Assembly (NCBI GenBank): GCA_035309945.1
Contig: DATGEQ010000106.1
Coordinates: 143,503-207,502 of the forward strand
Length of the DNA: 64,000 nt
Direction: 5' to 3'
DNA from: Gemmatimonadales bacterium
GTDB taxonomy: Bacteria > Gemmatimonadota > Gemmatimonadetes > Gemmatimonadales > GWC2-71-9
The notes below the pieces were generated by a model. It was not told where the DNA came from. It saw nothing but the letters and a program-made list of their open reading frames with translations, and made no database searches. Position 1 is the first letter of the stretch; every line of letters begins with the position of its first letter. Made by a program: the position numbers and the translations under genes. Below, in pieces: positions 1,942 through 20,797 of this stretch.

Positions 1942-2769
1942 GTGGCCGGAACGCTCTATGTCGTCGCGACGCCCCTCGGCAACCTCGGCGATCTCTCACC
2001 CCGCGCCGCCGAGACGCTGAAGCGCGTCGCGGTGGTCGCCGCCGAGGACACGCGCCACAGCAAACCCCTGCTCAATCACGCCGGCTCGAAGGCCGAGCTG
2101 GTCAGTTTCCACGCGCATTCATCCGACCGCGCCCTGGAGCGCATCCTGCGCATCCTCCAAGACGGGAGGGACGTTGCGCTCATCACCGATGCCGGCACGC
2201 CGGCGATCAGTGACCCGGGCGTCGAGCTGGTCGCTGCCGCTCGCGGGCGGGGAATTCCGATTGTCACCATACCAGGACCGACCGCCGTAGCGGCGAGCTT
2301 AGCGGTGTCGGGCATCGGAGGCGACCGCTATGTCTTTCTGGGATTCCTGCCCCGCAAAGGAAGCGACCGCCGCCGTTTGTTGTTGACCGCCGCCTCCAGT
2401 GAATGGACGGTCGTCATGTTCGAATCACCGAATCGCGTCACGCAACTGCTCGCCGACTTGATCGACGTCTGTGGGGCCGACCGGCAGGCGAGCGTCTCTC
2501 GGGAGTTGACCAAGGTCTTCGAAGAGACGCGTGCGGGGACGTTACAGGATTTGTCAGACCACTATGCAGACGCCCCGGTCCGGGGCGAGGTTACGGTGGT
2601 GCTCGCGGGCACCGGGAAGCCGCGGGTCGAAGAGCGGCCTCCCGATCCGGCCGAACGGGCCAAGGCTTTATTGGGAAAAGGGCTGTCCCGGAAAGACGCT
2701 GCGGATCGGTTAGCGGAAGAAACCGGAATCTCGCGGAATACGGCATATAGATTGGTCAACGATTTATGA
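1942..2769 (+). CDS. rsmI: 16S rRNA (cytidine1402-2'-O)-methyltransferase
   Basis: The N-terminus LYVVATPLGNLGDLSPRA...L..V..VAAEDTRHS..LL and the tetrapyrrole-methylase-like body are typical of RsmI. Confidence 0.85.
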   Translation: MAGTLYVVATPLGNLGDLSPRAAETLKRVAVVAAEDTRHSKPLLNHAGSKAELVSFHAHSSDRALERILRILQDGRDVALITDAGTPAISDPGVELVAAARGRGIPIVTIPGPTAVAASLAVSGIGGDRYVFLGFLPRKGSDRRRLLLTAASSEWTVVMFESPNRVTQLLADLIDVCGADRQASVSRELTKVFEETRAGTLQDLSDHYADAPVRGEVTVVLAGTGKPRVEERPPDPAERAKALLGKGLSRKDAADRLAEETGISRNTAYRLVNDL

Positions 2770-3443
2770 AAGCACTGTGCTCGGCCTTGGTCGCGGCTCT
2801 TGCGTTAGGCACCCCACACCCGACGCACGACACACGACGCGCGGCTTCTCTCACCATCGGTCGCCTGCACTACGACGGCGGCGGCGACTGGTATGCCAAT
2901 CCGTCCGCATTGCCGAATCTGCTGACGGCGCTGCGCGAGCGAACCACGCTTCCGGTAGCCGATCGCGAGCGCGTCGTGACGCTGACCGGGCCGGAGCTGT
3001 GGGACGTTCCCTTCATCTATATGACAGGCCATGGCAACGTGCATTTCTCCGATGTCGAGCTGCGCAATCTCCGGCGCTACCTGGAGCAAGGCGGATTCCT
3101 CCACGCCGACGACAACTACGGTATGGACAAGTCGTTCCGCCGTGAGATCGCGCGCGTCTTTCCGGACCATCCGCTCGTTGAAGTGCCGTTGACGCATCCG
3201 ATTTACAACCTGGTGTACGCGTTTCCGAAAGGCATTCCGAAGATCCACGAGCACGACGGTCTGCCGGCGCAGGGGTTCGGAATTTTTTTGGGAGATCGGC
3301 TTGTCGTATACTATTCCTACCAATCCGATCTCGGGAACGGATGGGAAGATACGACTGTGTACCATGATCCTCCCGCGCTGCACGAGGCCGCGCTGCGCAT
3401 GGGTGTGAATCTCTTCACGTACGCAGTCAGCGGGACAAAATGA
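2766..3443 (+). CDS. DUF4159 domain protein
   Basis: GRLHYDGGGDWYANPSALPNLL..L..RT...V......V.L..PEL.D.PF.YMTGHGN..FSD.E..NLRRYLE.GGFL.ADD.YG is the DUF4159 signature. The ATGA start/stop overlaps rsmI. Confidence 0.8.
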   Translation: MKALCSALVAALALGTPHPTHDTRRAASLTIGRLHYDGGGDWYANPSALPNLLTALRERTTLPVADRERVVTLTGPELWDVPFIYMTGHGNVHFSDVELRNLRRYLEQGGFLHADDNYGMDKSFRREIARVFPDHPLVEVPLTHPIYNLVYAFPKGIPKIHEHDGLPAQGFGIFLGDRLVVYYSYQSDLGNGWEDTTVYHDPPALHEAALRMGVNLFTYAVSGTK

Positions 3444-6400
3444 CCGAGACGGCGCGCCGACTGCGTCGCCTGGCCAGGCCGCACGCGCGCGCCCGCGCCT
3501 TCGCCGTGGTCCTCGGCGGTGCGGGAGCGGCGCTGGCCGCGGCCGCGCTCGGGCTTGCCGTCGCCCCCGCCGTTCCTGGCATGACCCTCGCCTGGGTTCT
3601 GGTCGCCGCGAGCGCGGTTGCCGCTGTCTGGGCGGTGCGGCGCGCGGGCCGCGACGCCACGCCGCCCGCTGTCGGCCGGCTGGTCGAGAGTGCCGCCGGT
3701 GGACGCGCCGGCAGCATCGTCGGCGTCGTGAGTCCGACGGTAGGCACGGCGCCGGGGGGAGGTTCGAGCGCCGCGTTATTGCTTGCGGCCGACACGCGCG
3801 CCGCCGCGGTCGTGTCGTTCGCGGCACCGGGTGTCGATGGTTTCATGCGGCGGACGACCTACCGTCACTTCTTCGCCGGCGCGGGCGCGGCACTCACCGG
3901 ACTCGTGCTGTTCGTCATGGGCTCACCCCAATCCGGCCGCGCCGCCGCGTTCTGGCATCCGGTCCGGGCTTGGCGGAACGCTTATGCGCCCGTGCGCCTG
4001 ACCGTGGATCGACTGAAAGTCCGCCGCGGCGGAACGGTGACTGCGACGATCGGTGTTCCCGGCGCGAAACGCGTCACGCTCTGGACGCGCGGGGCGGGGG
4101 AGCCCTGGAAGCCTACGGTCCTGGCGCTCGATCCTGACGGCAACATCGTGCAGCACATCGGTCCGATCGAATCGGATCTCTTTCTTCGCGCCGCGAGCGG
4201 CGGCCGCTCGAGCGGCGAAATCAAAATCGCCGTCGCGCTCCCGGCATTTCTCGCCGACCTCGATCTGACGGCGCGGTTTCCTTCTTATCTCGGTCGCTCC
4301 GATGAGCCGCTGCTCGCGGGGCCGGAGGTCATCCCGCTGCCCGCCGGGACGACCGTCATCACCAGCGGCACCGCGAGCGTACCGCTCGCAACGGCGGCGT
4401 GGACGCTCGAGTCTCATGCCGAGAAGTTGCGGGTGAGCGGCACGCGGATCGACGGACGCTTCATACCGCCGGCGAGCGGCACGTGGCGCTTGGAGGCGAC
4501 GACCATCGACGGATCGCCGCTGGAAGGCGCGAGTCCCGAGCTCCATCTCTTGATCGTGCCGGACTCGGCGCCGGTTGTCACGGTGCCCGTACCCGGCCGG
4601 GATACCACGTTGCCCATCTCGCTGCATCAGCAGCTGGTCGCCGACGTGCGGGACGACCACGGTATCTCGCGACTTGCGATCGTGAGCTGGCGCGTCAGCC
4701 GCACCGGCCGCATTGGCCAGCCGGTGCGCGACTCGGTGGATGTCAGCGGCGTGGGCGATCGCGCAATCGTTCAGGCCCGGCTCAATGCCGAGAATCGCAG
4801 CTTGCTGCCCGGTGACACGCTGCGCTTTTATGTGGAGGCACTCGACAACGCGCCGACCCCGCATGCGGGGCGTAGCCCGGAGATCGCGCTGCGACTTCCG
4901 AGCATGGAAGAGCTGCGCGCCGAGGCGCGCGCCGCCGCGCGAGAGGTGGCGACGGCGGCGGACTCCGTCGCAGCCGCGCAGCGCGAGCTGAGCGATCGCA
5001 CGCGCGATCTCGCGTCGGAGCGGAGCCGGGATACCGACGGGCAGGCCGGCCGACGGGCCGACGGGCGGAGTCAGGAGTCCGGCAGCATGTCGTTCCAGTC
5101 CACGCAGCGCGCCGAGGAAATCGCCCGCGATCAGGCCGCGATGTCACAGCGCGTACAGCAACTGGCGCAGGCGGTCGACGAAATCGCGCGCGCCGCGAAA
5201 GCGGCTGGCATCGACGACAGCGCGTTCCAAAGCCGGCTGCGCGAAGTGCAGGATCTGCTCGAACGCGCGCTCACCCCGGAGCTCGAACAGCGGCTGCGTG
5301 AGCTGCAGGACGCGTTGGCGAAGCTCGATCCTGAAGCCACGCGGCAGGCGCTCCAGCGCTTGGCGGAAGCACAGCAGCAGCTCAAGCGCGAGCTCGATCG
5401 CAGCGAGGAACTGTTCAAGCGCGCGGCCCTCGAAGGCGAGCTCGCCTCACTCGCCAAGGACGCCGAAGACCTGCAGCGCCGGCAGGCGGAGTGGACCAGG
5501 GAAGATGCGCAGCATGCCGATTCCGCAGCCGCCGCGAGCGAGCGTGACCTCGCCACGGCAACCGATTCGCTCGCGCGCGGCGTGGAGCGCGCGGGCGAGT
5601 CCGTGCCGCTCAAGCAATCCGCAGCTGCCGCGCGCCGCGCACACGGCGCCATGCAGGAAGCCGCGGGGGCCGCGAGTCAGAGCGACGCGCGCACCGCCCG
5701 CCGCGCGGGCCAGGAAGCGGCCGATTCGCTCGCGCAGCTTCCGGACGAGCTCCGCCATCGGCGCGACTCGCTGACCACGGCATGGAAACAGGAAACGCTC
5801 GACGCCCTGAACCGCGCGCTTGCCGAGACCGCGGCACTCGCCCAGCGCCAGCAGGAAATCGCCGATGCGCTGCGCGACGGTGACGTCAGTGCCACCACGC
5901 GGGGACGCCAGGCTGCCGTCGAAGAGGGAACGCACGCGATCGAACAAGAGATCGGAGCGGCGGCCGGGCGTCATGCGCTCGTCTCACCACAGCTCGAGGC
6001 GGCACTTGGCTACGCGCAGAACCAAATGAAAGAGTCGCGCGAGCAGCTGGAGCAAGGCGATCCGAATCCCGCGACCGCCGCGCCGTTTGCCGAGCAGGCG
6101 CTCGACGCGCTCAACGCGACCGCCCATGCGCTCGTGCGCACCGCGCAGCAGGTCGCCGGCGCGCAATCCGGCTCGGGTTTCCAGGAAGCGATCGAGCAGC
6201 TCGCGCGCATGGCGCAGGAGCAGCAGGGGATGAACGGTGAGGCCCAGGGCCTGATGCCGATGATGGGTCTCGGCGGCGACGCCGTGATCCAGCGACTGCG
6301 CGAGCTCGCGGCGCGCCAGCGCCAGCTCGCCGACCAGCTCGACCGTTTGCAGGCAGGCGGCGATGCCGGTGCCGCGGGCGCGCTGGCCCAGGAAGCGCGT

Positions 6401-6712
6401 GAGCTTGCGCGCCAGCTCGAAGCCGGCCGGCTCGATCAGCGGACGGTTCAGCGCCAGGAAGGCCTCTACCGCAAGCTGCTCGACGCCGGCAGAAGCCTCT
6501 CCAGCGATGAGCCCGACGAGAACAAGAAGCGCACCAGCCGCTCCGCTACCGCTGCCGACAGCGTCCACATCCCCACCGCGTTGCTGCCCGGCGCGACGGG
6601 CAACGGTCCCAAGATGCGGTATCCGACGTGGGACGAGCTCACGGGCCTCACGCCCGAGCAGCGGCGCATGGTATTGGAATATTTCCGCAGGTTAAATGAG
6701 CCGAAGCGTTAA
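3440..6712 (+). CDS. large membrane-anchored protein with a long Ala/Glu/Gln/Arg-rich predicted coiled coil
   Basis: 1090-aa ORF with hydrophobic N-terminal segments. The C-terminal half is heptad-like and low in complexity. The ATGA start overlaps the DUF4159 gene. Confidence 0.7.
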   Translation: MTETARRLRRLARPHARARAFAVVLGGAGAALAAAALGLAVAPAVPGMTLAWVLVAASAVAAVWAVRRAGRDATPPAVGRLVESAAGGRAGSIVGVVSPTVGTAPGGGSSAALLLAADTRAAAVVSFAAPGVDGFMRRTTYRHFFAGAGAALTGLVLFVMGSPQSGRAAAFWHPVRAWRNAYAPVRLTVDRLKVRRGGTVTATIGVPGAKRVTLWTRGAGEPWKPTVLALDPDGNIVQHIGPIESDLFLRAASGGRSSGEIKIAVALPAFLADLDLTARFPSYLGRSDEPLLAGPEVIPLPAGTTVITSGTASVPLATAAWTLESHAEKLRVSGTRIDGRFIPPASGTWRLEATTIDGSPLEGASPELHLLIVPDSAPVVTVPVPGRDTTLPISLHQQLVADVRDDHGISRLAIVSWRVSRTGRIGQPVRDSVDVSGVGDRAIVQARLNAENRSLLPGDTLRFYVEALDNAPTPHAGRSPEIALRLPSMEELRAEARAAAREVATAADSVAAAQRELSDRTRDLASERSRDTDGQAGRRADGRSQESGSMSFQSTQRAEEIARDQAAMSQRVQQLAQAVDEIARAAKAAGIDDSAFQSRLREVQDLLERALTPELEQRLRELQDALAKLDPEATRQALQRLAEAQQQLKRELDRSEELFKRAALEGELASLAKDAEDLQRRQAEWTREDAQHADSAAAASERDLATATDSLARGVERAGESVPLKQSAAAARRAHGAMQEAAGAASQSDARTARRAGQEAADSLAQLPDELRHRRDSLTTAWKQETLDALNRALAETAALAQRQQEIADALRDGDVSATTRGRQAAVEEGTHAIEQEIGAAAGRHALVSPQLEAALGYAQNQMKESREQLEQGDPNPATAAPFAEQALDALNATAHALVRTAQQVAGAQSGSGFQEAIEQLARMAQEQQGMNGEAQGLMPMMGLGGDAVIQRLRELAARQRQLADQLDRLQAGGDAGAAGALAQEARELARQLEAGRLDQRTVQRQEGLYRKLLDAGRSLSSDEPDENKKRTSRSATAADSVHIPTALLPGATGNGPKMRYPTWDELTGLTPEQRRMVLEYFRRLNEPKR

Positions 6713-8435
6713 GTTCGCGCTCGCTCTCATCGTCGCATTGCCGATCGTACTCGAGGCGCAAGCCATCGGGCCCGGCTTTGAGCTCGAGCGGTCGGGCCGG
6801 TACGCCAACGCGGCCGCCAGCTACCTCGCGACGATCCACGCCGATCCGACGAATCTTTCGGCGCTGCTCGGTCTCGAGCGGACGTTGTTCGCGCTGAACC
6901 GGATGGCGGAGCTATTGCCGCTGGTGCAGAACGCGCGGGCGCGGTTGCCCGACAATCTGGCGTTGCGCAGCCTGGAGTTGCGCGTGTACGCAACCTTGAA
7001 TGAGCCGGATTCCGTCGACGCGATATCGGAGCGCTGGGCGGCGCAATCGCCCCACAGCGAGGTGCCGTACCGGGAGTGGGGCCAGGCGTTCGCCGATCGA
7101 CGGATGTGGAACGACGCGCGACGCGCGTTCCTGCTCGGCCGCAAGAACCTTGGTGACGAAGACGCGCTCGCGATCGAGCTCGCGCAGCTGGAGCAACGGG
7201 CCGGCAACTGGGAGGCGGCTGCCGCCGAATGGGGGCGCGCGGTCACACGATCGCCGGATGTCGGCCCGAACGCCGTCAGCCAGCTGGCCGAGGCGCCCAC
7301 GGCGGCGCACGACGGCGTCACTCGGGTGCTGACAACGGGAACGGCGACTGCCCGCGCCCGCCGGCTGGGCGCCGAAGTGTTGCTGGCCTGGGGCCAGCCG
7401 GATGAGGCGTGGACCGCGATGCAGTCGACCCTGGCGCCGCGCGACGGCGAGACGGCTGATGCGCTGCGCCGCTTCGCGGATCTCGCGGCCGCGAACACGT
7501 CCGCGCCAGGGCATCGCGTGCGCGGGTTGGCGCTGACGCGCTGGGCCGACATGGTCCCCTGGCAGCAGGCGGCGCGCGCGCGCGCGGAGGCGGTGCGCGA
7601 GTTGCTCGACGCCGGCGACAAGGTTGCGGCGCGGCGCGTTCTCGAAGGACTGACCAGCGATTCGTCGATTCCGGCCGAGGCCCACGCGGCGGCCGAGACG
7701 GCGTTGCTGCAGGTGCTGATCGCGGATGGGCAACTCGATGTCGCGGAGGAGCGCCTCGCGAGTCCCGCGCCTTCGACGTTGTCCGAGGACGATCGCGCGT
7801 CGCTCCGACTCGCGCTCTCCCAGGCACGCGTCATCCGCGGGGAGCTGGACCGCGCGGCGACTGTGCTCGGCAACGATTCGAGCGTGACGGCGATCGCGCA
7901 GCGTGGCTGGATTGCGCTGTACCGCGGCAACCTCAAGGGCGCGATGGAGGCGTTTCGGATGGCCGGCCCCTACTCCAGCGACCGGGCCGCCGCCACCGAA
8001 CGGACCGCCATGATGGCGCTGCTGCAGAGCATCCAGCAAGAGTCGAGTCCCGAGCTCGGTGCGGCCCTGCTCACGCTGACGCGCGGCGATTCGATTGCGG
8101 CGATCGGCGCGTTACGGCGCGCTGCCGCCAAGCTGCCCGAGCAGGGCGGGCGACTCGACGTCTTGCTCCTTGCCGGCCGCGTCGCTGCCCTCAAGGGTCC
8201 TGAGCAGCAGCCGACGGCGACCGCGATCTTTGACGAAATCGTGCGCGCCGGCGGGGAGGGCGCGGCACCCGCCGCGGCCGAGCTCGAATGGGCGCGGCTG
8301 CTGGTGCGCGTGGGGCGCAACGCCGACGCGATCCCGCATCTCGAGCATCTCATCCTGACTTATCCGAACAGCGCCTTCGTGCCCGAGGCGCGGCGCGTGT
8401 TGGAGGGGGCGAAGGGAGCGATTCCGAAGTCGTGA
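6696..8435 (+). CDS. TPR-repeat protein with a signal peptide
   Basis: 579 aa, with a signal-like N-terminus followed by Ala/Leu-rich TPR-like repeats. The start overlaps the upstream gene by 17 nt. Confidence 0.65.
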   Translation: MSRSVKFALALIVALPIVLEAQAIGPGFELERSGRYANAAASYLATIHADPTNLSALLGLERTLFALNRMAELLPLVQNARARLPDNLALRSLELRVYATLNEPDSVDAISERWAAQSPHSEVPYREWGQAFADRRMWNDARRAFLLGRKNLGDEDALAIELAQLEQRAGNWEAAAAEWGRAVTRSPDVGPNAVSQLAEAPTAAHDGVTRVLTTGTATARARRLGAEVLLAWGQPDEAWTAMQSTLAPRDGETADALRRFADLAAANTSAPGHRVRGLALTRWADMVPWQQAARARAEAVRELLDAGDKVAARRVLEGLTSDSSIPAEAHAAAETALLQVLIADGQLDVAEERLASPAPSTLSEDDRASLRLALSQARVIRGELDRAATVLGNDSSVTAIAQRGWIALYRGNLKGAMEAFRMAGPYSSDRAAATERTAMMALLQSIQQESSPELGAALLTLTRGDSIAAIGALRRAAAKLPEQGGRLDVLLLAGRVAALKGPEQQPTATAIFDEIVRAGGEGAAPAAAELEWARLLVRVGRNADAIPHLEHLILTYPNSAFVPEARRVLEGAKGAIPKS

Positions 8436-9733
8436 AGCGACGAGACTTCGTGCGGACGGTTGGGCGCATGGGCGGATTGGCAGTTGCGTCCCAGCTCGGT
8501 CTTCGATTCAGCCCATCAGCGCATCTGCCCATCAGCCCATCGCTGTTGGTTCCGATGGACGACACGCAGACCGACCATCTCAAAGCGTACGGTCTCACCT
8601 ACCGCGCGATCCAAGCCGGTCTCAAAGCCGAGTGGCTGCTGAATTATCGCGGCGGGTCGTTCCTCATTCCCGACTTGGATGCGTTGCGGCGCGATGCGGC
8701 ACTCAACGGCGTGCGGACCGAGCCGGTCGACAGTGCGATGACCGCCGTGCGCGGCGAGATCGAAGCGAGCAACATGGACTCGGTGCCGCTCGAGAAGGCG
8801 CCCAAGATCGCCGTCTACGTGCCGCCGTTTGAGCAGCCGTGGGACGACGCCGTCACCATGGCGCTGCAGTACGCGGGGATCTCGTTCACGAAAATTTGGG
8901 ACGAAGAGGTCACGAACGGGACGCTGAAAGAATACGATTGGCTGCACCTGCATCACGAAGACTTCACGGGCCAGTATTCGAAGTTTTTCTTGATCTACTC
9001 GGGCATGCCCTGGCTGGCCGAGATGGTCCAGCGCAACACCGACATGGCCCGGCGGCTCGGTTTCCCCAACGTGCCTGAGCTCAAGAAAGCGGTGGCGCGG
9101 GGTATTCGCAGCTACGTCGAGAACGGGGGGTTCCTGTTCGCGATGTGCACGGCGACCGAGACGATCGATCTCGCGCTCGCCGCCGAACACGTCGACATCG
9201 CGGCCTCCTTCGCGGACGGTACCCCGATCGATCCCGAGGCCGACAGCAAGCTCGACTGGTCCAGGACCTTTGCGTTCACCGGCGCGCACATCGAGACGAA
9301 TCCGATGATCGCGAGCTTCTCCGACATCGACGGCCACCAGGTCAACGGCGGCGCGCGGCGCCAACCGCTCGGCGCGTTCAAGCTGTTCAACTTCGCCGCC
9401 AAGATCGATCCGGTGCCGACGATGCTCGTGCAGAACCACCGCCAGATCATCCCGGACTTCTACGGGCTCACGACGTCGTTCATGCGGAACCGGCTGAAGC
9501 CCAGCATCACGATCATGGGCGACGAAGAGGGCGCGCCGTGGGTGAAGTACGTTCACGGGGATCTGGGGAAGGGCACGTGGACCTTCTTTGGGGGCCACGA
9601 TCCCGAAGATGCGCAACACCAGATCGGTGATCCTCCCACCGATCTATCGCTGCATCCGCATTCGCCCGGCTATCGGTTGATTCTGAACAACGTGCTGTTT
9701 CCGGCAGCCAAGAAGAAAGAACTGAAGACGTGA
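8432..9733 (+). CDS. Tat-signal secreted protein of unknown function (class-I glutamine-amidotransferase-like fold suspected)
   Basis: GTG 8432 overlaps the TPR gene stop (GTGA). The N-terminus KRRDFVRTVGRMGGLAVA is a twin-arginine motif. From memory this family is often labelled 'asparagine synthetase B'; I could not verify that here. Confidence 0.6.
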   Translation: MKRRDFVRTVGRMGGLAVASQLGLRFSPSAHLPISPSLLVPMDDTQTDHLKAYGLTYRAIQAGLKAEWLLNYRGGSFLIPDLDALRRDAALNGVRTEPVDSAMTAVRGEIEASNMDSVPLEKAPKIAVYVPPFEQPWDDAVTMALQYAGISFTKIWDEEVTNGTLKEYDWLHLHHEDFTGQYSKFFLIYSGMPWLAEMVQRNTDMARRLGFPNVPELKKAVARGIRSYVENGGFLFAMCTATETIDLALAAEHVDIAASFADGTPIDPEADSKLDWSRTFAFTGAHIETNPMIASFSDIDGHQVNGGARRQPLGAFKLFNFAAKIDPVPTMLVQNHRQIIPDFYGLTTSFMRNRLKPSITIMGDEEGAPWVKYVHGDLGKGTWTFFGGHDPEDAQHQIGDPPTDLSLHPHSPGYRLILNNVLFPAAKKKELKT

Positions 9734-12273
9734 GCGTCGAGCGCCTGACGGCGGCGACGCGCGCGCTATTGCAGGAGGAGATCGCCGCCGCCCACGGGCG
9801 CGAGGTGTCGTTCGTCGTCCGCGCCGATCCCAACGGCGCGCTCACCGACGCGCGCGTGGTCGCGCGCGGCACGATCGACGCGGTGCTCGCGCTCCCCGGC
9901 GTCGCGCAGAAGGGTGAGATGCTGCTCCACAATCATCCGAGCGGCTTCCTCGAGCCTTCCGGCGCCGATCTCCACGTCGCCGCGCGCCTGCACGATGAGG
10001 GCGTCGGCTTTGGTATCGTCGACAACGACGTCAGCACCCTGTACGTGGTGGTCGAGTGCCCGCGCGCCAGGAGTCTCACGCGACTCGACGCCCTCGCGGT
10101 CGCGAATCTGCTGGCGGAGCCCGGCCCCGTCGCGCGCGTGCTCGGCACCACGGCGTTCGAAGATCGGCCAGGCCAGCGGGACATGGCGGCCTACATCGCC
10201 GACGCCTACAACGACGGCGGCATTGCGCTGCTCGAAGCAGGAACCGGCGTGGGGAAGTCGTTCGCCTACCTCGTCCCCGCGCTCGAGTGGGCGCGGCTCA
10301 ACGGCGAGCGGACGATCGTTTCGACGAACACGATCAATCTCCAAGAGCAGCTCGTCGGCAAAGATCTGCCCATCCTGTCGCGCGCGTTCTCTACCGGCGA
10401 TCGCGCCGTGACGTTCGCGCTGCTCAAGGGCTGGCGTAACTACCTGTGTCTCTCTCGGCTCGAGCAAGCGCGCGCCGGTCAGGAATCGCTGTTCGACGAC
10501 GCGCGCGGCGCCGAGCTCGACGCCATCGCCGGCTGGGCGTCGCGGACGGCCGACGGCAGCCTGTCCGATCTCGTCGAGGAGCCGTCGAGCGACGTGTGGG
10601 ACGCGGTGGCGGCGGAGTCCGATCTTTGCACCCGACTCAAGTGCCCGCACTTCGACCGGTGCTTCGTTTTTGCGGCGCGGCGGCGCGCCGCGGAAGCGGA
10701 CGTCGTCATCGTCAATCATCACTTGCTCGCGTCGGATCTCGCGGTACGCATCGTCTCCGATAATTGGCAGGAAGCCGCTGTGCTGCCGCCGTACCGTCGC
10801 CTCGTACTCGACGAGGCGCATCATCTGGAGGACGTCGCGGCGCAGCACCTCGGCACTCAGGTCAGCATGCTCGGCGTGCAGCGGCTGCTGGGACGCCTCG
10901 AACGCAACGGCCGCGGCCTGTTGCCCACACTCGCCGCCGAGCTCAGCACCCACGAGGACCTGCTCGGCGCAGCCAGCCGCGACCTGCTGGGCCGCACGGT
11001 GCTCGACGCGCTCGCCGCCGCCCGGCGCGGGGCGGAGGAGCTGTTTGGCCGCCTGGCGCGACGCCTCGACGCAGAGCAGTCGGCCACGCCCGTGTTACGG
11101 CTGACCGACGCGTTCGCCGAGGACGCTGTGTGGCGCGAAGGGCTCGACGTGGCGCTCGACAATCTGCTCATCGCCTTCAGCAAGCTGCGCGATGGTGTCG
11201 AGACGATCGCCGATCGCCTTTCGATTGACGATCCGGCGGAAATGCGGACACGGCTGATCGGCGAATTGCGCGGCGTGGTTCGCCGTTTGGATACGGCCGC
11301 GGATGCCCTCAAAGCGACGCTGCAACCGCGCAACCCGTCCGCCCATCTGCCCACGAGCCCATCGGTTCGTTGGATGGAGCGCCGCGGCCGCCGCACACCC
11401 AATCTCACGCTTTCGGCGGTGCCGCTCGATCTCGCGCCGGTTCTCAAGGAGGCGCTGTTCGATCGTGTCGAGACGGTCGTGTTGACGAGCGCGACGCTCG
11501 CGGCTGGCGGCGAGTTCACCTTCCTCGAAGAGCGACTCGGTTTGTCGCTGCCGCCCTCGCGCGTAACGGTCCGCGAAATCCTTCCGTCGCCGTTCGATTT
11601 CGGCGCGCAGTGCGTGTTTGGGATTCCCACGGACATCCCCGAGCCCCGCGACGACGAATCAGGCCACGGCGCCGCGGTCGCGCGTGTGCTGCTCGAGCTG
11701 GCGCACGCCTCGGACGGCGGGATCTTCGGGCTGTTCACGAGCTACGCCGCTCTCCGCCGCACCGCCGAGGCCGTCCGCGGGCACATCAACGGCCGCTGGC
11801 CGCTGCTCGTTCAGGGAGAGGGGCAACGCGATCAACTGTTGCGCCGGTTCCGCGAGGCCGGGTCGGCGATTCTGCTCGGCACCGATTCGTTTTGGGAAGG
11901 GGTCGACGTGCCGGGACGCGCGTTGCGTGTGCTCATCCTCGCAAAACTGCCGTTCAAGGTCCCGACCGAGCCGCTAACCGCCGCGCGGCTCGAGCGTCTG
12001 ACGCAAGCCGGAGTGGACGGATTCACGCACTACCTCGTTCCCCTCGCGGCACTCAAGTTGAAACAGGGGTTCGGGCGCCTCATCCGCACCAAATCGGACG
12101 TCGGCGTGGTAGTGCTGCTGGACCGGCGGGTCGTCACCAAACGGTATGGCGCGGCGATGCTCGAAGGCTTGCCGCCCGCTGCGAGGGCGATCGGTAACTG
12201 GCCGGATGTACGGCGAGAAGTCGAAGAATTCTTTGCGATGCACAGTATCGGCAGCCCCCCGTCTTGGAGCTAG
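9730..12273 (+). CDS. dinG: DinG/XPD-family Fe-S helicase with an N-terminal RadC-like JAMM (JAB/MPN+) domain
   Basis: The N-terminus carries HNHPSGFLEPSGAD, which matches HxHx7Sx2D. The helicase part has Walker A GTGVGKS, DEAH box VLDEAHHLED and a 4-Cys cluster (CLSRL...CTRLKCPHFDRC). GTGA overlap with the upstream gene. Confidence 0.85.
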   Translation: MSVERLTAATRALLQEEIAAAHGREVSFVVRADPNGALTDARVVARGTIDAVLALPGVAQKGEMLLHNHPSGFLEPSGADLHVAARLHDEGVGFGIVDNDVSTLYVVVECPRARSLTRLDALAVANLLAEPGPVARVLGTTAFEDRPGQRDMAAYIADAYNDGGIALLEAGTGVGKSFAYLVPALEWARLNGERTIVSTNTINLQEQLVGKDLPILSRAFSTGDRAVTFALLKGWRNYLCLSRLEQARAGQESLFDDARGAELDAIAGWASRTADGSLSDLVEEPSSDVWDAVAAESDLCTRLKCPHFDRCFVFAARRRAAEADVVIVNHHLLASDLAVRIVSDNWQEAAVLPPYRRLVLDEAHHLEDVAAQHLGTQVSMLGVQRLLGRLERNGRGLLPTLAAELSTHEDLLGAASRDLLGRTVLDALAAARRGAEELFGRLARRLDAEQSATPVLRLTDAFAEDAVWREGLDVALDNLLIAFSKLRDGVETIADRLSIDDPAEMRTRLIGELRGVVRRLDTAADALKATLQPRNPSAHLPTSPSVRWMERRGRRTPNLTLSAVPLDLAPVLKEALFDRVETVVLTSATLAAGGEFTFLEERLGLSLPPSRVTVREILPSPFDFGAQCVFGIPTDIPEPRDDESGHGAAVARVLLELAHASDGGIFGLFTSYAALRRTAEAVRGHINGRWPLLVQGEGQRDQLLRRFREAGSAILLGTDSFWEGVDVPGRALRVLILAKLPFKVPTEPLTAARLERLTQAGVDGFTHYLVPLAALKLKQGFGRLIRTKSDVGVVVLLDRRVVTKRYGAAMLEGLPPAARAIGNWPDVRREVEEFFAMHSIGSPPSWS

Positions 12274-19378: not shown

Positions 19379-20797
19379 ATGCGTCGCTCCGCGTCGTTGT
19401 TGCTGGTTGCACTCACGATTCCCACGATGTGTGCCTTTGCCGCCAGTCGGGGGGGGGGCGGGAGCAGAGGCGGCGTGTCCGACGCTGTGCGTGCGTACGA
19501 GCTGGCGTATTCGGCATCGCGCTCAAGTTATGGGAGCATTCCGAGCTTTTCACGCCAAACCGGGCTCGCCTGCAACGTCTGCCACAGCGCGTTTCCCATG
19601 CTGACGGCGTTCGGTCGGCAGTTCAAACTGAATGCCTACACGCTGACGGGGCTGCAGACGATCGGGCCCCTGGGGGCGAATCCCAGTCTCAAGATCGACC
19701 TGATTCCGCCGGTGTCGACGATGCTGCAGACGTCCATGACGCAAACGGCGAAGGCGCAGCCCGGGACGCAGAACGGCAACGTCGAATTCCCGCAGCAGCT
19801 CAGCGTCTTTTTCGGCGAAGCTATCTCACCCCGCATGGGCACGTTCATTCAGATCACCTATGACGCGGTAGCGGGCTCGATCGGCATGGATAACGTCGAT
19901 CTTCGCTACGCAAAGCGGGTGACGTTCGCGTCGAAACCCCTGTTGTTCGGCGTTACGGTCAACAACAGCCCTACCGTGCAGGATGTCTGGAATTCAACTC
20001 CGGTGTGGGGATTTCCGTTCGCGTCATCGGGCGTAGCGCCCACGCCCACCGCAGCGCCGCTCATCGACGGCGCGCTCGCGCAAGGTGTTGCGGGAATCGG
20101 CACCTACGGGCTGTGGGACGAGCACCTGTACGGCGAGCTCTCGGTGTACCGGTCCGCGCCGCAGGGCGGGGCACATCCGCCAGATTCGTCGTCGACGATG
20201 ATTGCAAAGGGCGTCACGCCCTATTGGCGGTTCGCCTATCAACGTGGATTTGGGAGCCAGTACATCGAGCTGGGCACGTACGGCCTCTCGGCCCGACTCT
20301 TCCCGACGGGTGTCACGGGACCAGTCGACCGCTTCACCGACGTCGGTGGCGATCTCCAGTACGAGCGCCGGACCGGTAAGGCCGGGCTCGGGACATTCGT
20401 CGTGCACGCGACCTACACGCACGAACAGCAGAAGCTCGACGGAACATTCGCGGCTGGCGGCTCGGCGAATCCGAGGAACAGCCTCAACCGGTTCCGCGCC
20501 GACGCGGTGATTCTGACGCCTTCGCGCGTGGGCGGCACGCTCGGTTTCTTCGCGACGAGTGGTACCGCCGATGCCGGCCTGTATGCGCCCGCGTCCGTGA
20601 CCGGCAGCGCGACGGGAAAGCCGAACAGCAGCGGTCTGATCGCGGAGTTTCAGTACATGCCGTGGATCAACACACGGTTCTCGGTGCAGTACGTCGCGTA
20701 TCAGAAGTTCAACGGTGGGACGACGAACTATGATGGGTCGGGCCGCAACGCGTCCGACAATAACACGCTGTATCTGCTGGCCTGGTTGATGTTCTAA
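19379..20797 (+). CDS. putative outer-membrane beta-barrel protein with an N-terminal CxxCH heme-binding motif
   Basis: Signal peptide MRRSASLLLVALTIPTMCAFA, then the motif ACNVCHSAFP. The body is long and beta-rich, and the C-terminus ...LYLLAWLMF ends in an aromatic residue, as in OMPs. Confidence 0.65.
   Translation: MRRSASLLLVALTIPTMCAFAASRGGGGSRGGVSDAVRAYELAYSASRSSYGSIPSFSRQTGLACNVCHSAFPMLTAFGRQFKLNAYTLTGLQTIGPLGANPSLKIDLIPPVSTMLQTSMTQTAKAQPGTQNGNVEFPQQLSVFFGEAISPRMGTFIQITYDAVAGSIGMDNVDLRYAKRVTFASKPLLFGVTVNNSPTVQDVWNSTPVWGFPFASSGVAPTPTAAPLIDGALAQGVAGIGTYGLWDEHLYGELSVYRSAPQGGAHPPDSSSTMIAKGVTPYWRFAYQRGFGSQYIELGTYGLSARLFPTGVTGPVDRFTDVGGDLQYERRTGKAGLGTFVVHATYTHEQQKLDGTFAAGGSANPRNSLNRFRADAVILTPSRVGGTLGFFATSGTADAGLYAPASVTGSATGKPNSSGLIAEFQYMPWINTRFSVQYVAYQKFNGGTTNYDGSGRNASDNNTLYLLAWLMF

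Follow-up and report, generated by a model that had tools for sequence, protein, structure and literature searches.

What does a RadC-type metallohydrolase domain do when it is built into a DNA helicase? To our knowledge, RadC is among the most widespread bacterial proteins still without a biochemical function, and its fusion to DinG is the strongest contextual clue that it works on DNA. The question is raised here by a gene of a Gemmatimonadales bacterium, located on the + strand at positions 9730–12273 of a 64-kb stretch of DNA (contig DATGEQ010000106.1, positions 143,503–207,502; the whole stretch is hereafter called the window, and all coordinates refer to it). The gene product is almost certainly a member of the described RadC-like DinG subgroup, with an intact JAB domain joined by a linker of fixed length to a YoaA/DinG-type 4Fe-4S helicase. 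As the Gemmatimonadota member of a published and named family, it adds context to the question of RadC-JAB function, not an answer.

The fusion of a RadC-type JAB domain with a DinG/Rad3 helicase was first reported in five bacterial lineages by Iyer et al. in 2011 (PMC3239186) and was restated by the same group in 2017 (PMC5512222). A 2025 review gave the subgroup the name 'RadC-like DinG' and presented an AlphaFold3 model of the member from Desulfuromonas soudanensis (PMC11981726). A preliminary description of the window, made from the sequence, had regarded the fusion as unusual; this was not borne out, as the architecture was published in 2011 and named in 2025, is widespread in bacteria, and is carried by 125 of the 131 closest full-length representatives (≥780 amino acids, aa) found here. 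Its carriage by Gemmatimonadota is mentioned in neither PMC3239186 nor PMC11981726. New here are the occurrence of the fusion in at least 80 Gemmatimonadota species at a fixed chromosomal context, the architecture counts, the conservation of the JAB site, the near-constant spacing between the JAB domain and the motor, and a syntenic orthologue that lacks the JAB domain.

Domain architecture and family membership

The features of the gene are as follows.

9730–12273, + strand: RadC-like DinG open reading frame (ORF), complete, 847 aa plus stop, with a GTG start; homologues of 840–851 aa align across 100% of it
9730–10065, + strand: RadC-type JAB/MPN+ domain (aa 1–112); PF04002 above the gathering score, AlphaFold2 predicted local distance difference test (pLDDT) 94.1, Foldseek top match RadC 2QLC
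9802–9804, + strand: codon of Glu25, the predicted JAMM general base, in a G-x-E-V motif (here G-R-E-V); 95% conserved over 132 representatives
9928–9969, + strand: JAMM motif HNHPSGFLEPSGAD (aa 67–80, with H67, N68, H69, S77 and D80), read from the translation; each catalytic residue 97–98% conserved
10066–10149, + strand: structured linker (aa 113–140) of conserved length, with helices at 121–126 and 133–138; spacing data, full-length model pLDDT 86–95
10150–12270, + strand: DinG/YoaA-type superfamily 2 (SF2) helicase core (aa 141–847), comprising motor domain 1, the Fe-S and arch insertions, and motor domain 2; NCBIfam, Foldseek match 6FWR
10240–10260, + strand: Walker A motif GTGVGKS (aa 171–177), read from the translation; G173, G175 and K176 100% conserved
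10447–10662, + strand: Fe-S cluster region with Cys240, Cys300, Cys305 and Cys311; translation and conservation data
10810–10821, + strand: DEAH box (aa 361–364), read from the translation; D361 and E362 100% and H364 99% conserved
11692–12177, + strand: Helicase_C_2, motor domain 2 (aa 655–816); Pfam PF13307, E = 1.9e-43

The N-terminal domain was identified by both profile and fold. The RadC-like JAB family PF04002 was placed at aa 10–96 with 29.1 bits in the whole protein and 35.2 bits in aa 1–137, against a gathering cut-off of 22.1 bits, and the canonical RadC models (NF000642, TIGR00608) were matched weakly, their 26–32 bits falling short of the cut-offs of 180 and 133.85. Among solved structures, RadC of Chlorobium tepidum (2QLC) comes closest to the AlphaFold2 model of aa 1–128 (pLDDT 94.1); next are BubCD, an archaeal Rpn11 homologue, CSN5, and AMSH. 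Predicted elements of the domain are a helix at 8–20, strands at 26–32, 38–46 and 63–69, a helix at 78–89, and strands at 93–98 and 103–108, and the JAB/MPN+ pattern E...HxHx7Sx2D (aa 25 and 67–80) lies on this MPN fold. The preliminary description had read from the translation a JAMM motif that is intact and belongs to a RadC-like JAB domain. This is confirmed by these results, and the possibility that the description had left open, of an N-terminus outside the JAB/MPN superfamily, is contradicted by the PF04002 score and the fold matches. Elsewhere in the window, the JAMM pattern recurs once, near nt 19840, but a stop codon breaks it there, so that no open frame carries a further JAMM motif; the Walker A pattern G-x-G-x-G-K-[ST] does not recur.

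The rest of the protein is a DinG/XPD-type Fe-S helicase with Walker A motif, DEAH box and four cysteines, as the preliminary description had also stated and as PF13307, the NCBIfam models and the 6FWR match now substantiate. The best NCBIfam match is YoaA (NF053712; 554 bits, model positions 3–619 of 630), followed by the ExoDinG-type model NF005981 (453.4 bits), E. coli DinG NF008729 (412.6 bits), and NF005569 (145.4 bits). The respective equivalog cut-offs are 680, 789, 598 and 794 bits, so those of YoaA, DinG and ExoDinG are all missed by the window helicase. For the full-length model (pLDDT 87.5, predicted template modelling score 0.82), the top match is E. coli DinG 6FWR (E = 7.5e-41); S. 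aureus DinG, CasDinG, and XPD come after it. The last three Fe-S cysteines (300, 305, 311) are 5 and 6 residues apart.

The protein has the features by which the RadC-like DinG subgroup is described, namely an N-terminal RadC-like JAB domain with a centre of one Glu, two His and one Asp, followed by a motor of motor domains 1 and 2 with an arch and a four-Cys Fe-S domain. The members from D. soudanensis (A0A0M4DKS9) and Kuenenia stuttgartiensis (A0A2C9CFG9) have the same domain order, the same E/HNH/S/D site, four-Cys Fe-S domain and YoaA-like core, and their N-termini (PMC11981726, Table S1) share with the window protein the motifs G-x-E-V, A-R-G, H-N-H-P-S-G, P-S-x-A-D and G-V-G-F-x-I-V-D-N; the window member differs from them by its lineage, Gemmatimonadota.

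YoaA of E. coli has the Fe-S SF2 core in common with the window helicase, but it is a partner of HolC and has no enzymatic domain at its N-terminus, whereas the window protein has a JAB domain and scores below the YoaA cut-off. HolC was reported to be absent from organisms with RadC-like DinG (PMC11981726). ExoDinG of S. aureus and B. subtilis (PDB 9II8, 8ZEF) carries, like the window protein, an N-terminal hydrolase at the same fusion point. This hydrolase is a DnaQ-like DEDD exonuclease, however, with a fold unrelated to that of JAB, and many ExoDinGs lack the Fe-S cysteines (PMC11981726), of which the window protein has four. Window aa 141–834 align to positions 254–928 of the ExoDinG-type model; since the helicase aligns only from model position 254, the JAB domain fills the slot of the ExoDinG exonuclease, a point also made by Iyer et al. 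(PMC3239186). Canonical RadC/YicR (PF04002, 2QLC) has the same JAB subtype with the same HNHPSG...PS..D signature, but it is a protein of ~220 aa with a helix-hairpin-helix (HhH) at its N-terminus and a JAB domain at its C-terminus, whereas the JAB domain of the window protein is N-terminal and fused to a helicase, with no HhH detected. Assignment to CasDinG of type IV systems (Csf4) was considered and rejected, as TIGR03117 gave a score of 109 against a cut-off of 400, type IV cas neighbours are missing, and the four cysteines are present; the PADLOC and NCBIfam CasDinG matches of the window helicase reflect generic helicase homology.

Distribution and conservation of the fusion

A homologue search among 1.84 billion cluster representatives (clusters at 50% identity, E ≤ 0.001) returned 20,613 matches, and H-N-H...S..D is present in 127 of the best 150, among them the 125 full-length representatives with the fusion. 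The family is large, as it spans no fewer than 125 of these 50%-identity clusters, and the fusion is the majority form among the closest helicase relatives. Among 132 full-length sequences, E25 is conserved in 95%, H67, H69 and P70 in 98%, and N68, S77 and D80 in 97%; all seven residues are invariant in independent alignments (A1, A3). In the helicase, G173, G175, K176, D361, E362, C305 and C311 are conserved in 100% of the same sequences, and the remaining Fe-S cysteines, C240 and C300, in 90% and 86%. Mean identity to the query is 43% in the JAB core and 41–51% in the motor domains. The JAB core is constrained as strongly as the motor domains.

In 86 of 116 sequences the HNHP motif lies 102 aa from the Walker A motif, and the full set spans 99–108 aa. 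This near-constant spacing, together with the confidently modelled linker, indicates that the JAB domain and the motor are held in a fixed, not a tethered, arrangement.

At least 505 JAB-encoding matches were detected in GTDB species-representative genomes. The downstream helicase was checked in the best 80 loci of this genome scan, all of them Gemmatimonadota metagenome-assembled genomes (MAGs) with 57–93% identity, and a helicase match lies ~375–395 nt downstream of the JAB match on the same strand in all 80. These counts bear on whether the fusion could be an artefact, that is, the product of a wrongly called start, of a frameshift, or of separate radC and dinG genes joined in assembly. Such an origin might be read from the fragmented 'stand-alone' JAB calls in public data, but the gene is a single uninterrupted frame in the window, the JAB-then-helicase order recurs on the same strand in every one of the 80 Gemmatimonadota loci, diverse full-length representatives share the architecture, and the inspected stand-alone cases lie on error-rich contigs. 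The chance of an artefact is negligible, and an assembly or annotation error is excluded.

JAB-less, degenerate and apparently stand-alone forms

Not all orthologues carry the JAB domain. At locus L089 (9001–11342), an orthologue with a short N-terminus and its Walker A motif at residue 96 is 60% identical to the window helicase, and the thioredoxin, rsmI, DUF4159, large-protein and 392-aa genes (the last at 67% identity) are all kept. At locus L090 (9001–11300), a second JAB-less orthologue lacks the block from DUF4159 to the 392-aa gene, rsmI stands directly ahead of the helicase, and lexA lies ~4 kb downstream. A maximally sensitive profile search found no JAB domain in any of the six frames of either locus. 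A stretch containing LGP-G that resembles the linker is also present just ahead of the helicase core in the JAB-less orthologues. Because a syntenic JAB-less orthologue exists, the JAB domain is an accessory module, and the occurrence of syntenic orthologues with and without it in one phylum offers a natural comparison for finding what compensates its loss.

Degenerate forms also occur. The sequences HSRPDG, ISHQSE and RVRPGS stand at the JAB site in the group formed by P0126, P0168, P0238 and P0209, and in P0209 an unrelated N-terminal extension of ~170 aa replaces the JAB domain. The JAB-less and degenerate forms are scattered among the JAB-bearing ones when the helicase core is arranged in a rough neighbour-joining tree, so that repeated loss of the JAB domain is the simpler reading, as far as this crude tree can be followed. 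Gemmatimonas aurantiaca C1A7T8 has been classed as a plain DinG (PMC11981726, Table S1), whereas MAG proteins labelled Gemmatimonas sp. (P0396, P0460, P0504), 66–85% identical to it, carry PF04002; the plain-DinG listing could be due to a mis-called start or to a real and recent loss of the JAB domain.

A profile search for the JAB subtype as a stand-alone protein yielded only proteins of 100–250 aa, some labelled partial at source. All six cases that were inspected lie on contigs with many split genes, and in five of them pieces of the helicase follow directly or the contig ends shortly downstream. A separate-gene form of this JAB subtype was therefore rejected for lack of evidence. The ENA long-read contigs L002, L003, L085, L086 and L088 have many genes split by apparent frameshifts, which creates spurious 'stand-alone JAB' and 'partial DinG' entries in public collections. 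At L087 (7001–9900), the sixth case inspected, a 199-aa JAB ORF is followed directly by a P-type ATPase gene instead of a helicase gene; either a remnant left by truncation or a chimeric assembly could explain this.

Possible function of the JAB domain

DinG/YoaA-type Fe-S helicases translocate 5'→3'. The function tentatively favoured here, though at less than even odds, is that of a helicase-guided metallohydrolase cleaving an amide or peptidyl bond of an adduct or obstacle on the tracked DNA strand. In the scheme that we infer, including helicase polarity, substrate, bond cleaved and pathway, the helicase would bind single-stranded DNA and track 5'→3' using ATP, a polarity taken from its family. 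Tracking would bring to the JAB site what lies ahead on the strand, be it an adduct, a protein bound or cross-linked there, or a 3' end that is blocked; at this site a carbonyl-type (amide or peptidyl) bond of the DNA-borne adduct or obstacle would be hydrolysed. The chemistry may be that of other JAMM enzymes, with zinc held by H67, H69 and D80, water activated by E25, and the oxyanion stabilised by S77. With its distance from the motor fixed, the JAB domain probably works on the strand that the helicase tracks. The fusion would then serve as a self-contained clean-up enzyme in replication-associated repair, comparable to YoaA with an exonuclease in E. coli and to FANCJ with SPRTN in vertebrates.

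Cleavage of an amide or peptidyl bond is favoured because every biochemically characterised JAB domain is an (iso)peptidase (PMC5512222), the oxyanion serine is conserved, the structural neighbours are proteases, and a precedent exists in FANCJ and SPRTN. The structural neighbours reported for the AlphaFold3 model of the D. soudanensis protein are likewise JAMM metalloproteases, with no nucleases among them (PMC11981726). In crosslink repair, the DinG-family helicase FANCJ is reported to work together with a metalloprotease (PMC10175854), and YoaA is reported to make nascent 3' ends that are blocked accessible (PMC11981726). FANCJ and SPRTN pair a 5'→3' Fe-S helicase of the DinG/XPD family with a DNA-dependent zinc protease (PMC10175854), but the likeness is a functional analogy only; they are two separate proteins and SPRTN is a zincin, not a JAB enzyme, whereas the window protein is a single fusion known from its sequence. 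In a narrower and more doubtful form of the proposal, the fusion would be a crosslink or roadblock protease in a single polypeptide, whose 5'→3' helicase pushes into or unfolds an attached protein or peptide that the rigidly mounted JAB domain cleaves. If true, it would be the first biochemical function assigned to JAB domains of the RadC family, and bacteria would have a counterpart of the FANCJ-SPRTN pathway. The chemistry seems to give a role at DNA-protein crosslinks, offered as speculation in the preliminary description, a slight edge over the published hypothesis of a nuclease.

Several points weigh against this proposal. The group of Iyer and Aravind favours a nuclease and holds that RadC-type JAB domains probably lack the groove for the ubiquitin tail (PMC3239186, PMC5512222). 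The JAB-less syntenic orthologues mean that the role of the domain is dispensable in some lineages, and P0126, P0168 and P0238 have degenerate JAB sites. According to the 2025 review, RadC-like DinG has had no experimental study so far (PMC11981726), and no functional assay of RadC was found in literature searches on RadC biochemistry. The preliminary description had allowed that the architecture might prove common and already characterised, and it is indeed common and described, but not experimentally characterised.

The published alternative, that the JAB domain is a nuclease or nucleotide-processing domain which replaces the DnaQ-like 3'–5' exonuclease and trims or cleaves the strand delivered by the helicase, was drawn by Iyer, Aravind and colleagues from the closeness of these helicases to versions that carry a 3'–5' exonuclease instead (PMC3239186). 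Related DinG helicases do carry a 3'–5' exonuclease or an endonuclease at the same N-terminal position, RadC JAB domains are also fused to HhH, DnaG-primase and ArdC-N single-stranded-DNA-binding modules (PMC3239186), the ubiquitin-tail groove is said to be missing from RadC JAB domains, and the deaminase-like fold acts mostly on nucleotides (PMC5512222). Literature searches, however, found no phosphodiester cleavage by any JAB/MPN enzyme, the conserved residues are exactly the peptidase JAMM set with the oxyanion Ser77 included, and from general enzymology a carbonyl or amidine carbon would seem the more suitable target for a single Zn-water-Glu site. A nuclease remains a serious, if rather unlikely, candidate. 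The activity shared by every characterised JAMM enzyme, and the fold matches to BubCD, the Rpn11 homologue, CSN5 and AMSH, would also agree with a peptidase, either an isopeptidase or a processing enzyme, whose substrate is a ubiquitin-like protein (Ubl) or another protein partner; by taking a modifier off the helicase itself or off a replication or repair protein, for instance, it might regulate the helicase instead of acting on lesions. Such a role seems improbable for a minimal JAB domain of 112 aa without ubiquitin-holding insertions, with no Ubl, E1 or E2-like genes in the neighbourhood of the window gene or in the contexts of other lineages, and with no partner gene conserved across lineages. 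Still less probable is a JAB domain without a catalytic role, present as a module that helps the helicase structurally, in DNA binding or in recruitment. The JAB-less syntenic orthologues, the degenerate sites of P0126, P0168 and P0238, and the inactive versions that Iyer et al. described in fusobacteria (PMC3239186) could be explained in this way, but the five catalytic residues are 95–98% conserved over ~130 clusters at ≤50% identity, against a mean column identity of ~41–43% in the domain, which would not be expected if its role were structural alone.

Genomic context

The window gene lies in a run of genes that are all on the + strand. Upstream, in order, are genes for a thioredoxin, an uncharacterised protein, RsmI, a DUF4159 protein, a 1090-aa protein, a tetratricopeptide repeat (TPR) protein and a 392-aa protein; the helicase is followed by a class I/II aminotransferase, a further uncharacterised protein and an amidohydrolase. 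The G+C content is even across the window. The immediate neighbour is as follows.

8555–9733, + strand: upstream gene of ~392 aa; its TGA stop and the start of the helicase gene share 4 nt

The arrangement is conserved in the phylum. In the 80 Gemmatimonadota loci, the block of rsmI, DUF4159 and the genes for the 1090-aa, TPR and 392-aa proteins lies upstream wherever the contig extends, except that DUF4159 went undetected in L034; the aminotransferase is downstream in most of those loci whose contigs extend far enough. In Gemmatimonadales, the fusion is a vertically inherited core chromosomal gene within a conserved co-directional block. The mobile-element and defence contexts that the preliminary description associated with JAB/RadC modules do not apply here, where the gene belongs to the core chromosome and to a block conserved in 80 Gemmatimonadota species. 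A phage or defence context was likewise rejected, as the searches gave one marginal match of 34 residues in IMG/VR, no PADLOC match for the JAB domain, and only generic DinG homology for the helicase.

Other sampled lineages have other neighbours, namely cytochrome c7, Fmt and DUF116 genes, or nucleoside phosphorylase and GroES genes, and no partner gene common to the sampled lineages was found. Ubl, E1, E2-like or cas genes were found near the gene neither in the window nor in the contexts of the other lineages. Because such genes are missing nearby and the housekeeping context varies by lineage, the fusion protein looks self-sufficient.

The 392-aa gene adjoins the helicase in 80 of 80 Gemmatimonadota loci. 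As a JAB-specific partner it was rejected, since it also stands beside a JAB-less orthologue and is absent from the contexts of other lineages. Neither Pfam nor NCBIfam gave a match for the 1090-aa or the 392-aa protein, and the PDB gave none for the latter. The order of the genes for DUF4159, the 1090-aa protein, the 579-aa TPR protein and the ~392-aa protein (window 2766–9733, + strand) is kept in nearly all of the 80 loci that reach far enough. In the ORF ahead of the called start of the 392-aa protein, a stretch reading RRDFVRTVG may be a twin-arginine signal. The GTG start of the helicase overlaps the TGA stop of the upstream gene (GTGA, 9730–9733), and the same 4-nt overlap is found in L001 and in the JAB-less L089; an overlap of this kind suggests translational coupling of the helicase with the upstream gene.

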